DNA from: Eledone cirrhosa
Taxonomy: Eukaryota
Length of the DNA: 64,000 nt
Direction: 5' to 3'
Assembly: GCA_964016885.1 (NCBI GenBank)
Contig: OZ024741.1
Span: forward strand, 124,930,001 to 124,994,000
Below the pieces are notes generated by a model. The model did not search any database and had not been told where the DNA came from. It worked only from the letters and a program-made list of their open reading frames with translations. The number at the start of each line of letters is the position of its first letter. The stretch's first letter is position 1. A program made the translations under genes and the position numbers. This document shows positions 15 through 62,996 of the stretch, piece by piece.

Positions 15-769
15 TGTTACATAGTGATCGTTGTTTATCACATTAATGTATAACACTCAGAAATATGAATGTTTCATATCTCTATGATTTCTCAGTTAAA
101 GTTATTAAATGATGCTTAAATTCTCGGTGCATCTACAAAATATGCACACACACACACACACACACAGATACACACACACACACACACACACACACACACA
201 CACACACATATATATATATATATATATAAGATATATATATATGCTATGTATATCATATAACATATATATATATATATATATATATATATATATATATATA
301 TATATATGTATATAGAATATATATATATATAAATATATATATATATGTATATATATATATATATATATATGTATATATATATATATATATATATATATAT
401 ATATATATATATATATATATATATATATATATATATATATATATATATATATATATAAAATATTATAAAAAGGAATATGCATGTATATGTATGTATACAC
501 ATATATTTGTATACCCCTCATTATTGTATATATATATATATATATATATATATGATATACATAACATATATATATATCTTATATATATATATATGTGCGT
601 GTGTCTGTGTGTGTGGGGGGGGGGGGTGTTATGGACTGGCATATTTTGTAGATGCACCGAGAATTTAAGCATCATTTAATAACTTTAACTGAGAAATCAT
701 AGAGATATGAAACATTCATATTTCTGAGTGTTATACATTAATGTGATAAACAACGATCACTATGTAACA
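15..769. repeat. Fold-back duplication; ~131-bp essentially perfect arms (15-145, 639-769) around a partly mirrored microsatellite spacer
   Basis: tgttacatagtgatcg...aaaatatgc is the reverse complement of gcatatttt...cactatgtaaca; ORF track shows [12 protein letters not shown] on both strands. Confidence 0.9.
689..732 (+). ncRNA. Degenerate hammerhead-like motif (CUGAGAA core); mirror copy 52-95 on minus
   Basis: ctgagaa-atcatagagatat-GAAA-cattca(tatttc)tgagtg-TT; helix III pairs, helix I not evident. Confidence 0.35.
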
Positions 770-1180
770 CAATAACAACTCATGCACTGAAATATATTTT
801 TTTGTATATGTGTGTGCGTATATGTATGTGAAGGTGTGTATATGAGTGAGAGAGTGTGTGGGTGTATGTGTGAGTGAGAGAGAGAGTATTATACATTAAT
901 ATCATAAACAAAACAACCAGCACTGTAAAACAATAACAATATATCAAATTATACATACACTGAAATAAATACGAATGTGTATATATATATATATATATAT
1001 ATATATATATATACATATATATATATATATGTACATATATGTATATATATATATATATATATATATATATATATATATATATATATATATATATATGTAT
1101 ATATATATATATATATATAAATTATATATGGGGTGAACCTGTATATGTGAGTACGTGTAATATACATTAATGGATTAAAC

Positions 1181-1265
1181 AACCTAAATTGTGTAACAAT
1201 AACAAGTCAGGTTTCATTTCCACTGAAATGTTTATCCAATCCAATGTAATCAACGGCTTTCTCAA
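1181..1265 (-). ncRNA. Degenerate hammerhead-like motif (UUGAGAA core)
   Basis: minus strand: ttgagaa-ag-ccgttga...tcagtgg-aaat-GAAA-cctga...ttagg-TT; helices II and III pair, helix I not evident. Confidence 0.35.
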
Positions 1266-2403
1266 TCCTCTCGGTGTAACCCTTCCCTGGTTGACTTTCA
1301 CCGCTTCTGTTTAGTTTTGGTCATATCTTGAGATGTATAGCAGTACTTACTACGCTTGGCCAATTGCGGATTGGTGAAGCCATTTAACCCATAGTTGGGG
1401 TGGGGTGTACAGCCATTAACTCTGAGAAGTTCATCCGCTCTTTTAACAGCTCTTGATTTTTTGTGCTACTAGGTTTCACGTACCCTCATCACCTGACTAG
1501 GGTCTGGTGTGGGAGCCATTTGGCCATATATGGTCCTAGTAGCAGGCTCAAGCTGACCTGTCGAAATATATGTACACCTGATATATTATTCCTTATCATA
1601 GTTCATAGTTATGTGTAAAGAGCCTCTACACTTCGTTTATGTCCCAAGGCTTTATCTATCTATATATATCTATTCATCTATCTATCGATACGGCGATACT
1701 CTTTCGCTCGCACACTACACAGGCAGGCGAAGGCATACTCTGACATGTACAAGTATCTCACTTATTCTCTCCTTCCCTCTCTTTCTCTCAGGAGTCACTC
1801 ATAATCAAGTATGACTTGCTGTTAGATTTATTTTTCAAATTATTATAATTAAACAATAAAAAAACTCCATCAACCATGCTTTGCTCATTCATGAAGATGT
1901 AGACCAAAGCCACTGGCACAACTATGCCTGCAAATATGGCGGTGCCCCAGCTTGGCCTCAGCCGGGTGGCTGGAACGGGTAAAAGAGTAATACAGATGGG
2001 AATGTCAATGTGGTAGATTTTTCGATGGAGGAGGTTGTGCTAACAATGTGGGTGTAATTTGAATTATTGTATTAGTGTTTGTTGTTTACACATACATAGA
2101 CATGTATATATATGCATAATATGCACACACACAGCCACACAGACATACAGACACACAAACACACACATACACACAAACACACGCACAAACACACACACAC
2201 ACACACACATACACACACACCACCCCCACCCACCCACACATATATATATATACATATATATATATATAAATATTTAATTCATAATCTCATTAATATAATG
2301 AAATATATATAATGTTCTCTACATTACATTGATAACTTTAATCCGCGTCTGCAAACACAAAAGCACGAATATGTTTAGTTTTATATATATATATATATAT
2401 ATA

Positions 2404-2741
2404 GGAAAAGGTATTACCCCGACGGCAGAGCTCAAGCTGTTTCGACGGCTATTTCTGGACTAAATTAGAATTTTTAGCCTGGTGAATAGATACATTATTT
2501 ATTCACCAGGCTAAAAATTCTAATTTAGTCAAAAAATAGAAATAGCCGTCGAAACGGCTTGAGCTCTGCCGTCGGGGTCATACTTTTTCCTATTTCCCAC
2601 TCTACTACCCTAAATATTGAGTACTCTGGTGCGTTATGGTCCATCTGGTTCCTTACCACAATTCCTTTGTTATATATATATATATATATAGTAGCTGTCG
2701 AAACGGCTTGAGCGCTGCCGTCGGTGTCAAACATTGTCCTA
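2404..2741. mobile_element. Fold-back of PLE-type terminal repeat 3' end (same family as 7295-9304), arms 2404-2488/2500-2590, tail to ~2670 plus extra fragment
   Basis: inverted arms each carrying GAAA-cggcttgagctctgccg-TC-ggggt (3' half of HHR); (TA)n on both sides. Confidence 0.75.
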
Positions 2742-3186
2742 TATATATATATGAAATTATAAGATAAGAGGAAATAATAGACAAAAATATACCTATTGTT
2801 TCTTCAAAGTCCCGACTGTACAGTTTCGCTGATCCATATGCAACAATTGTATATTATAGTTATGCAACAACGTTGTGAGGCGAATCAGTTTGTCAAGGAA
2901 TACCTCAGAGAAGAGGACTGGTCTCCAGACGTGTTTGCAGCAAGTGAGAAATCTCTATAGGCGGCAGGAGGAATAATTACGTGATACATCGGTCAAGAAA
3001 AAGGACTGTTTCCCTTGCAGCAAGTGAAAATATCTCAGAAAGCGGAGGGAGAAATTAGTACAAGATACAGAGGTCACAGGTGGGTAGTAAGGTAGACAGA
3101 AAGTGACTATCGTATTCTCTAAAGAAAGCAGTTTGTACACTTTCGGGTTACCTCGACCATAGAGTAGTTTGAGATAATATAATAAT

Positions 3187-3357
3187 TGTTTCTACTTATG
3201 GCACAAGGCCAGCAGTTATCTCAGTGCATTACTGTTACTTTATTTTATCGAACACATAAGGATGAAAGGCAAAGTTTACCTCGGCAGGATTTGAACTCAG
3301 ACAATAAAGGGCCGTAACGCTTTGCTGCAACGCATGGCGTCAAACCCTCAACCGATT
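3187..3357 (-). mobile_element. tRNA-derived SINE (family 1)
   Basis: B-box-like gagttcaaatcc and core gccgagg-aaactttgcctttcatcc...gataaaataaagta shared with many copies in the window. Confidence 0.8.
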
Positions 3358-3549
3358 GAGATACACACACACACACATATATATATATATATATATATAT
3401 ATATATATATTCAGCCTTTCGAGATATTTTTCACTTGCTACAAGGGAATCAGTCCTCTTTCTTGACCGATGCATCACGTGTTAATTCCTCCCTCCGCTCC
3501 GCCTATTGAGATTGTCTCACTTGCTACAAACGTGTCTGGAAAACGTTAC

Positions 3550-61319: not shown

Positions 61320-61420
61320 CAATTTTTCAATTTTTCAATTTTTCAATTTTTCAATTTTTCAATTTTTCAATTTTTCAATTTTTCAATTTTTCAATTTTTC
61401 AATTTTTCAATTTTTCAATT
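61320..61420 (+). repeat. (CAATTTTT)n 8-bp tandem repeat inside PLE 3' region
   Basis: direct reading, ~12-13 units. Confidence 0.95.
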
Positions 61421-62404
61421 TTGATTCCTCATTATTAATTTGTTATTTGTTTTCTGTTCTCTTCACTTTATCACCTTATATTTATTTTTAAGTTGAGATT
61501 GGTTATAACACAAACACATTTTATTTGATTATCTTATTCTTTTACTATCTCGTCCTCATACCAATCTATCCAACATATTTCTGACCTTGAGATTGGTTAT
61601 AGCACACACACACTTTATCTTACTTTATTTGAATCTTCATTTAATTGTTCACTCTCCATATTCATTTTCATTACTTTTTCATTACTTTTACATTAATTTT
61701 TCATTTATTCTTTATTCTCTATTTATCATTTATTTTCTGTTTTCTTCATTGTATTGCCTTATATTTCTTCATATACATGGAAGAACCCCCACCACCACCA
61801 CGGGAGTTGGTGGCAGGAGGGATGAAGGAAGACACACAGATACTTCTAAATTGTCAGCAGCAGCAAGACATAAGCTGACCACAACACCAACAATACTACC
61901 AAAATAAGGGTAGAGGTCAAATGTACTTAACAATAGCAAACACAAACACTACAGGGAGCATCACCCCAGAAAGAATTTCTATAGACTTTGGACTGAGGAA
62001 TGCTCTCAAAACTGACCAATGGGAAGTTTGACATTTTTTTATTTTGTTCCTTTACCATCTTATTCCTTCTACCACTTTATCGATTTTTTTTTAGCTAACT
62101 CCAACAATAACAACACTACCAACACAAGAATAGAGGTCAGATGTACCTAACAATAACAAGAACAACAACTACAGATTGGCTTGCCTCAGAACGAATTTCT
62201 ATAGACTTTTGAATGAGGAATGTTCTAACAACTGACCAATGAGAGGAGTAGAGGCCCTTTGACACTGAAATTCGTTTGTTTAAATTCATATGATTCCAGT
62301 TCCTCAGTGAAATAACAACCCAACCAGGAACTGGGAATATCAGAGTATTGACAAAGTTATACACCTCAACAATATGTATACCCGTCTCTACCACACTAAT
62401 TCGG

Positions 62405-62459
62405 ACTGCCTGAAGAGGTCACAGCCAAAGATGGCTGTCACCGAAATATATATAGCAAT
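62405..62459 (+). ncRNA. Type I hammerhead, canonical core, PLE 3' end
   Basis: actgc-CTGAAGA-ggtcacagcc(aaagat)ggctgtcacc-GAAA-tatata-TA-gcaat; short duplication atatagca follows. Confidence 0.85.
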
Positions 62460-62554
62460 ATAGCAGTAATAAACGAAGCTAAATTTTAAACATTTGACTT
62501 ATTTATTTTATTTTATTTTATATATATATATATATATATATATATATATATATA

Positions 62555-62752
62555 TGAAAAATATAAATATATGCTGAAAAGTTACCGGCTTTGGGTAACA
62601 GAAAATACAGGAGGATCAGTTAATTATGATTTTATTCAACAATTCCACTCTCAGATTCACACATTTATTGCAGTAGTCCTACTTTTGCTTGTAAAGATAA
62701 CAGTTCTACCATTTCGCGATACCCTTAAGCCAGTAACTTTTCAGCAAGCCGG
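62555..62752 (-). mobile_element. Terminal-repeat fragment with 20-bp inverted ends (62572-62591/62727-62746) and an HHR-like 3' half
   Basis: tgctgaaaagttac.ggctt mirrored; minus strand GAAA-tggt(aga)actg-TT ... AATAAA. Confidence 0.45.
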
Positions 62753-62924
62753 TATATATATATATACATACGGAAAGGGTAAGAGACACATATAGATAGA
62801 AAAGAGGATGTGAGAAAGAGGAGGGAAGAGAGAGAGTGTGACTCAAATGTCAGACCGGTAGACAAACGAAATAAGAAGAAGAAAAGTTTTAGCTAGTTAG
62901 TTAGAGAGGGGGGTCGATAGAGTC

Positions 62925-62996
62925 AGAGCTGATGTAGTATGCCACTTTCTTTTTATAGATAGCATGAGGGAGGATGAAACAGTACAACTGTGCTAT
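62925..62996 (+). ncRNA. Decayed hammerhead-like motif (CUGAUGU core, G at cleavage position)
   Basis: agag-ctgatgt-ag-tatgc...gcatg...GAAA-cagt(aca)actg-TG-ctat. Confidence 0.3.

Follow-up and report, generated by a model that had tools for sequence, protein, structure and literature searches.

The stretch analysed here, hereafter the window, comprises 64,000 nucleotides of Eledone cirrhosa DNA (contig OZ024741.1, positions 124,930,001 to 124,994,000 of the 3.0-Gb assembly GCA_964016885.1). It contains 62 (TA)6+ tracts, LINE fragments, a Tc1/mariner transposase (44366-45229), four coding remnants of Penelope-like elements (PLEs) and many hammerhead ribozyme motifs. Between these lies a repeat without an open reading frame (ORF), 40503-41106 on the minus strand, in which a permuted hammerhead is predicted (40564-40665; Table 1). 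A sequence-only reading of the same DNA had described type I motifs and made no mention of this one, which is the window's most unusual item and its real novelty.

Past the CUGAUGA box of 40503-41106 there is no GAAA box. In the copies of this family GAAA lies upstream of CUGAUGA and the cut-site block further upstream still, which produces a non-circular order of site, GAAA and CUGAUGA blocks (S-G-C). Exact patterns for the family returned 4,630, 379, 1,124 and 2,795 matches in the genome (overlapping sets), and reversed controls returned 0-2. Among 92 copies, H17 was C in 53, A in 38, U in one and never G, position 7 was U or C, helix I occurred as three main sequence pairs and helix III was nearly invariant; in a fourth subfamily U-A replaces G-C in helix I. 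An alignment of 82 copies added an outer helix, an upstream hairpin and two helices linking the core strands to an upstream strand. Upstream pairing is predicted both for the strand that follows CUGAUGA and for the one that precedes GAAA, and with each other they form at most 1 bp. A local hairpin after CUGAUGA, considered as stem II, was rejected since the upstream pairing fits better (G-C in 54 and A-U in 22 of the 82 copies); it is possible in one subfamily.

In 40 copies chosen from the 82 to span the subfamilies, 94.4% of cells were paired, compared with 88.1% after shuffling and 31-41% after sliding, and 14 of 36 pairs, distributed over six of the seven helices, changed on both sides; the kinship of the copies and the fitting of the structure on them inflate these figures. 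Pair 5 of helix I was C-G in 51, U-G in 18 and U-A in 23 of 98 copies, and these forms occupy neighbouring lineages on a tree built from the flanking 280 nt. It could be argued that the blocks are merely short words arranged by chance within an AT-rich, amplified repeat, given that loose permutation descriptors match AT-rich satellites (locus L339) and that the copies are related by descent. The double-sided changes, the wobble intermediate on the tree and the recurrence of the layout in unrelated sequences of distant animals largely refute this explanation, which we regard as very improbable. Scans for the orders CSG, GCS, GSC and SCG in the window and in a 400-kb genomic sample (described below) gave only satellites, coding DNA and chance-level matches. 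The split-core S-G-C structure predicted from the aligned copies is well supported.

Units of the 40503 family are mostly 445-560 nt long, tandem and ORF-less. The 3' ends are fixed: of 72 inserts from 70 loci, 61 end in one of two narrow bins separated by about 48 nt, which lie at ~+73 (15) and +121 (46) counted from the predicted cut. This two-site pattern resembles the PLE tail, which has been ascribed to internal priming (PMC11167929). More than one unit is present in 23 of the 72 inserts, and most inserts read through the predicted cut site. First-pass 5' ends fall within ~43 nt downstream of the cut in 14 of 72 inserts, compared with 9 of 58 in the 100 nt that follow. Among the 120 contexts of the cut site that were examined, 112 were normal and six contained a common 201-nt deletion, seen in one subfamily, whose left break lies exactly after H17, at the predicted scissile bond, with no microhomology. 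The deletion junction has 43 exact matches in the genome, and deleted and full units alternate in loci L269 and L278, which is suggestive in that such alternation is expected of copying round a circle.

A mechanism can be proposed in which a tandem or read-through transcript would fold the ribozyme, with the junction of helices A, B and C replacing stem II, and would be cut after H17. A host ligase may then join the unit RNAs into circles, and a PLE reverse transcriptase-endonuclease would nick (TA)n. Downstream of the ribozyme, copying would begin at either of the two fixed internal sites, and it could exceed one round of the unit.

Several observations weigh against an active ribozyme of this kind. 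There is no canonical stem II: at the 10.1-11.1 pair, 15 of 98 copies have A-A and three have C-A, and it is also unpaired in the Naiad PLE ends examined, and because one lineage has A-A there (the 15 copies), no true stem II can be claimed. Helix III and helix C hardly vary and hence give little covariation support; the covariation observed is owed to a few related subfamilies, whose sequences also served to derive the structure. Folded as a circle, the 517-nt unit reaches -73.5 kcal/mol, compared with -75.8 +/- 4.8 kcal/mol in shuffles, so that there is no excess stability. The excess of 5' ends could be polymerase stalling at the structure or plain length decay, and the exact-site deletion, while suggestive, is one old ancestral event noticed post hoc. 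Moreover, the hammerhead of an Anolis PLE cut only with protein and was dispensable for insertion (PMC11167929).

From such points it could be proposed that the permuted motif is a conserved, hammerhead-derived RNA structure which no longer cuts and whose present role is to signal binding or priming to the PLE protein or, as a 3' element, to confer stability. The 0-1 pair of stem II beside the catalytic G12 and the read-through of the site in most inserts would agree with this, as would the normal insertion of Anolis PLE catalytic mutants, for which no RNA reads ended at the site (PMC11167929). Loss of cutting would leave unexplained, however, why the catalytic letters are preserved and variation occurs where hammerheads tolerate it (N7; H17 not G), why the same letters are found in Naiad ends of cnidarians, an ostracod and cephalopods, and why a deletion junction falls at the scissile bond. 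A non-cutting role is considered unlikely, and the permuted hammerhead is likely to be active in cleavage.

Naiads were reported to be without a canonical hammerhead and to contain only words labelled 'HHR_core' or 'HHR_half_core' (PMC8557442). A search of Naiad ends for CTGATGA, covering places 29-50 of 62 and missing line-broken matches and other core variants, returned ten 3' ends, which were read by eye. Seven of them have the S-G-C order: two from Acropora, two from Octopus, one from Euprymna (junction unclear) and, by file position, one each from Morbakka and Darwinula. Two of the remaining three, from nematodes, follow the type I order, their helix II being long; one could not be parsed. 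The nematode ends, Naiad-3_Nbra and Naiad_Hcon, resemble type I hammerheads whose helix II is long and branched, and the published descriptors missed them. In the 3' ends of Naiad_Obim and Naiad_Ovul every helix of the 40503 layout, together with the same hairpin-B loop, was recognised by eye (PMC8557442 supplement). Judged by this resemblance, it is likely that the permuted hammerhead of 40503-41106 derives from the end of a Naiad PLE, and that the permuted form is the ribozyme thought to be missing from Naiads, with cutting predicted.

The 40503 units, which lack an ORF, contain none of the features of Naiad coding regions (N-terminal GIY-YIG, CxC, DKA and reverse transcriptase, RT), and neither DKA nor a Naiad RT motif was found in 1.44 Mb of fetched loci. 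Counting against a Naiad origin, three Naiad-derived DNA patterns for an autonomous Naiad had 0 matches in this genome, and the hairpin DNA pattern returned only the ORF-less 40503 family; such searches rely on short DNA patterns taken from other species, by which absence cannot be demonstrated. Because no Naiad was found by these four patterns, the helper could be a protein of Hydra or Neptune elements. The family may then be an independent retrozyme carried by the abundant Hydra and Neptune proteins, its likeness to Naiads being an old capture or convergence. Coding remnants of both clades are common in the fetched loci, and (TA)n targets and two-site 3' ends are common to several clades (PMC8557442), but the foreign-species patterns say little about Naiad absence and octopus Naiads have the same layout and hairpin loop. 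Independent carriage is possible, although doubtful.

Overall, it is quite probable that PLE families and their partners inserted into (TA)n leave hammerhead-bearing terminal repeats in this genome, and that 40503-41106 contains a likely active S-G-C hammerhead with a split stem II, likely derived from Naiads. We also lean, with somewhat less assurance, towards the joint proposition that an undescribed, active S-G-C hammerhead with a junction-rebuilt stem II is the Naiad ribozyme from cnidarians to cephalopods and drives, via cut and re-ligated RNA circles, a retrozyme of many thousands of copies. If true, this would place a non-circularly permuted ribozyme in an animal genome, contradict the assumed need for a stem II common to the GAAA and CUGAnGA blocks, and overturn the view of Naiads without hammerheads, on which the argument that hammerheads are mere parasites of PLEs has drawn. 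The permuted form escapes current type I descriptors and matters more than the dense type I layer. No description of a permuted or split-core hammerhead in animal retroelements was found in the literature searched, on which subscription papers and unseen supplements may bear.

Table 1. Coordinates of the elements, hammerheads and structural parts in the window.
Feature	Position	Strand	Remarks
ORF-less repeat, 516-nt period, ~1.15 units	40503-41106	-	3' end in (TA)n; permuted hammerhead once complete, once 5'-truncated
Predicted S-G-C hammerhead, split stem II	40564-40665	-	
Helix A	40662-65/40564-67	-	
Hairpin B	40640-61	-	
Helix C	40635-38/40604-07	-	
Outer helix	40628-33/40583-88	-	extends helix III outwards
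Helix III	40620-24/40595-99	-	
H17	40619	-	predicted cut 40619/40618
Helix I	40612-18/40576-82	-	
GAAA	40599-602	-	
CUGAUGA	40569-75	-	
PLE assigned to Hydra clade	20184-23087	+	5'-truncated, frameshifted; RT, CxCX5C linker, C-terminal GIY-YIG
Terminal hammerhead of 20184 PLE	23009-23059	+	core position 4 is A; helix III a stable hairpin
Second Hydra-type PLE family, 3' fragment	29093-29760	-	canonical hammerhead 29122-29161
PLE assigned to Hydra clade	41107-44165	-	broken ORF, ~1 kb 3' region, tail; hammerhead 41220-41274
Second copy of 41107 family	59400-62518	+	hammerhead 62405-62467
Solo 165-bp terminal piece, sister family	45566-45730	-	between two (TA)n tracts; hammerhead 45611-45666
ORF-less unit, ~443 nt	34895-35475	+	tandem arrays elsewhere; hammerhead 35169-35211; fits non-LTR retrozyme
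ORF-less unit, ~0.85-0.9 kb, 5'-truncated copy	39850-40486	-	head-to-tail re-entry; hammerhead 39998-40111
Neptune-type PLE terminal repeats, head-to-head pair	30625-31084	.	A4-variant hammerheads 30774-30812(-), 30895-30933(+)
Young family, U3-A8 compensated core	14275-14485	+	hammerhead 14310-14347; TTGAAAA in 15/15
U3-A8 family, long helix II, inverted pair	2752-3710	.	motifs 2810-2900(-), 3565-3652(+, decayed)
Further U3-A8 family, nested inverted copies	7295-9303	.	stable helix III; near-complete 7640-7811(-), 9160-9303(+)
3' halves, 7640/9160 family	7295, 7341, 7507		
Other 3' halves	2404, 2496, 2692		
Two more families, decayed/partial motifs	5558-7019	.	5558-5741; 6561-7019
Canonical core	29122-29161	-	descriptor scan
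Canonical core	35169-35211	+	descriptor scan
Canonical core	39998-40111	-	83-nt helix II; helix I damaged in window copy
Canonical core	41220-41274	-	descriptor scan
Canonical core	45611-45666	-	descriptor scan
Canonical core	62405-62467	+	descriptor scan

The type I hammerheads of the window were surveyed with a descriptor. With zero mismatches it recovers one of the six canonical cores named by the sequence-only reading, and a looser version, which finally also admitted the U3-A8 core and a long helix II, was used instead; all six were found where that reading had placed them. Seven intact cores were present in the window, compared with a mean of 0.5 (maximum 2) in 30 shuffles preserving the (TA)n tracts, so that the motifs exceed chance. 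When 417 intact motifs taken from fetched loci were compared with the window by Blast, further decayed copies and 3' halves emerged. Comparison with intact genomic copies brings the total to ~17 complete or decayed motifs from ~13 families and ~8 3' halves, in agreement with the earlier count of about 17 motifs and several halves from about a dozen families. Halves alone (GAAA, palindrome and UH) are weak, with 52 rows compared with 15-27 in shuffles, and were therefore accepted only given a family match. Genome searches with 12 candidate stretches identified ten as repeat families, with 189-2,613 first-look candidates each (not copy numbers), and two as unique; the motifs 60/689 and 28403 had no second copy in the genome search and remain unsupported. 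Among the Rfam matches listed at E<=5 (best 150 of 170) there was no hammerhead family, only miRNA-type matches driven by microsatellites.

Intact family copies contain CUGANGA, GAAA and NUH in the C-G-S order with helices I-III, and several window copies are decayed or have A4 or U3-A8 cores. In the loci closest to each window copy, a choice that biases the counts towards conservation, the core is CTGAAGA in 30/30 copies of the 62405 family and CAGAAGA in 15/15 of the 23014 family. Type I cores are thus preserved across copies, with variation at the free position 7 and as the U3-A8 swap. An A in place of U at position 4 was seen in three unrelated families, 23014 (15/15), 6917-6930 (one library copy) and 30807/30900 (9/25), two of which have a stable helix III. 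Four motifs (23014, 29156, 41269 and 62410) indeed lie at the 3' end of GIY-YIG remnants, as had been proposed. The accompanying generalisations were too broad: AATAAA, said to follow most motifs, lies between motif and (TA)n in 7/15 tested (an eighth, at motif 14314, overlaps the beginning of the AT run), and the short palindromic helix III ascribed to most motifs is a stable hairpin in the 23014, 7640/9160 and 6917 families.

On the basis of their motifs and visible likeness to Hydra-1_Obim, the elements at 20184, 29093, 41107 and 59400 are assigned to the Hydra clade. DKT (copies L165 and L050), the CxCX5C linker (frames 20988-21833 and 60608-60892) and, at the C terminus, a GIY-YIG without CCHH are present; the Pfam matches to GIY-YIG are weak (E 0.001, below cut-off). 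Hydra-type copies show (TA)n insertion and a hammerhead in a terminal repeat with an optional tail, and they end in (TA)n or a short tail. PLE coding matches were found at 19/25 loci of the 29093 family, and helix II of 45611-45666 covaries against the 62405 family. Naiad identity of the window's coding remnants was considered and rejected, since the endonuclease is C-terminal. An in-frame TGA was noted at the expected second Cys of the CxxC of the Hydra endonuclease (21525-21840, plus strand). The Neptune link of the head-to-head pair comes from a frame upstream in locus L120 with CX4CxxC and a CCHH-type GIY-YIG. Several short copies of this repeat (L109, L120, L123, L124 and L130) begin at the same place, ~30 nt past a TATA-like box that longer copies contain, as would be expected had their template been an uncut transcript of the terminal-repeat promoter.

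The 34895, 39850 and 40503 families consist of ORF-less tandem units with one ribozyme each, although in the 39850 family tandems are partial and occur in only 2/9 loci read. Matches to retroelement proteins of the window were found at only 3/25 loci of the 35169 family and 2/25 of the 39998 family. The hammerhead is of type I in the 34895 and 39850 families, which, judged by unit and ribozyme, fit non-LTR retrozymes, and of the S-G-C order in the 40503 family. In the U3-A8 family at 3600, TTGAnAA is present in 14/15 copies, U3 and A8 being fixed in 15/15 and position 7 variable. Neither the U3-A8 core nor the basal U-U pair of helix II can be counted as new, the former being in PMC4209133 and the latter in the Hydra table of PMC8557442.

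Motif density in the window, described earlier as very dense, does not exceed that of the genome at large. In 40 evenly spaced 10-kb stretches from 12 large contigs (400 kb, 0.013% of the genome), the same descriptor found 46 motifs, or 0.115 per kb compared with 0.11 in the window (7 per 64 kb), while shuffles yielded 5, 1 and 3; the 584 (TA)n tracts of the sample are more per kb than in the window. A rough extrapolation from this 0.013% gives roughly 3x10^5 intact-core motifs genome-wide, which in 3 Gb would be well above the published counts of ~5,000 (mussel), 9,000 (Xenopus) and up to 120,000 (axolotl). One randomly chosen stretch (L341:3650-4600) contains a tandem array of units of 310 nt, every one of them bearing a type I hammerhead. 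The window is typical of a genome into whose (TA)n tracts many PLE families and protein-free partners have inserted.

The sequence-only reading had called this a hidden system. The motifs are real, but the dense type I layer is known in kind (PMC4209133; PMC8557442): the octopus element Hydra-1_Obim was already catalogued with a hammerhead and a (TA)n target (PMC8557442), and low activity and a model of cleavage as dimers were reported for minimal PLE hammerheads (PMC4209133). For cutting, type I motifs whose helix III is a short palindrome would depend on a second copy, and single genomic copies are probably mostly inert. That reading had further taken most non-coding islands for PLE terminal repeats or retrozyme-like partners targeting (TA)n. 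The nature of the islands was borne out and 'most' was not, as a family-supported motif was found in 19/42 islands between (TA)6+ tracts, and in 11/27 of those <1 kb.

Other repeats were noted in passing. Inverted repeats of <=1.5 kb, perfect or nested, are numerous (7295-9303, 2404-2740, 5500-5760, 6453-7150 and 15-769); they are typical of inverted, 5'-truncated PLE insertions, and the elements insert into one another's (TA)n ends. The Tc1/mariner element (44190-45463) has a near-complete transposase frame and TA runs on both flanks. An abundant SINE-like family of ~250 bp, without a hammerhead, occurs in both orientations (3182, 13551, 13753, 24677, 24853, 27780, 33242, 47538 and 58981), and at 25950-27200 a 24-bp tandem array is followed by a long (GGT)n-rich low-complexity tract.

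Compared with known systems, the type I layer is closest to the minimal PLE hammerheads (PMC4209133), with which it shares thousands of dispersed single motifs in many families, the palindromic helix III, the U3-A8 variant and, as taken from that paper, low activity and the dimer model. It differs in its far higher density (~0.11 per kb), in helices II reaching 60-85 nt and in several families with a stable helix III. Published Hydra PLEs (PMC8557442) have the same DKT, CxCX5C, C-terminal GIY-YIG, (TA)n target and terminal type I hammerhead, with a frequent U opposite U at the base of helix II; here at least three Hydra families are present rather than one, with long 3' regions and, in one family, A4. 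Metazoan non-LTR retrozymes are likewise ORF-less, low-GC tandem units with one hammerhead each, thought to be moved by PLEs via circular RNA (PMC7229834; 10.64898/2026.07.22.740005). Their type I ribozymes lie in units of ~150-450 nt, whereas the 39850 unit is near 0.9 kb and the 40503 family has a permuted ribozyme in units of 445-560 nt. Naiads (PMC8557442) share with the 40503 family the (TA)n target and the layout of the 3' end, and in octopus also the hairpin loop, but encode an N-terminal GIY-YIG and an RT. The nearest relatives of the permuted ribozyme itself are the type-SGC hammerheads (HRIMA-1 and variants, PMC10085705), in which the same order of site, GAAA and CUGAnGA, the crossing helices I and III and a short linker that joins the stem I strand with the one preceding GAAA were described. 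The 40503 family has this block order, all core letters and both helices, but in place of their ordinary stem II, between the strands flanking CUGAnGA and GAAA, it has a split stem II of at most one pair (unpaired in 18/98 copies) with an upstream junction. It would thus work like a type-SGC hammerhead without one defining feature, and whereas type-SGC hammerheads were reported to occur in no genome of a known organism (PMC10085705), the 40503 form is present in thousands of copies in an animal retroelement.

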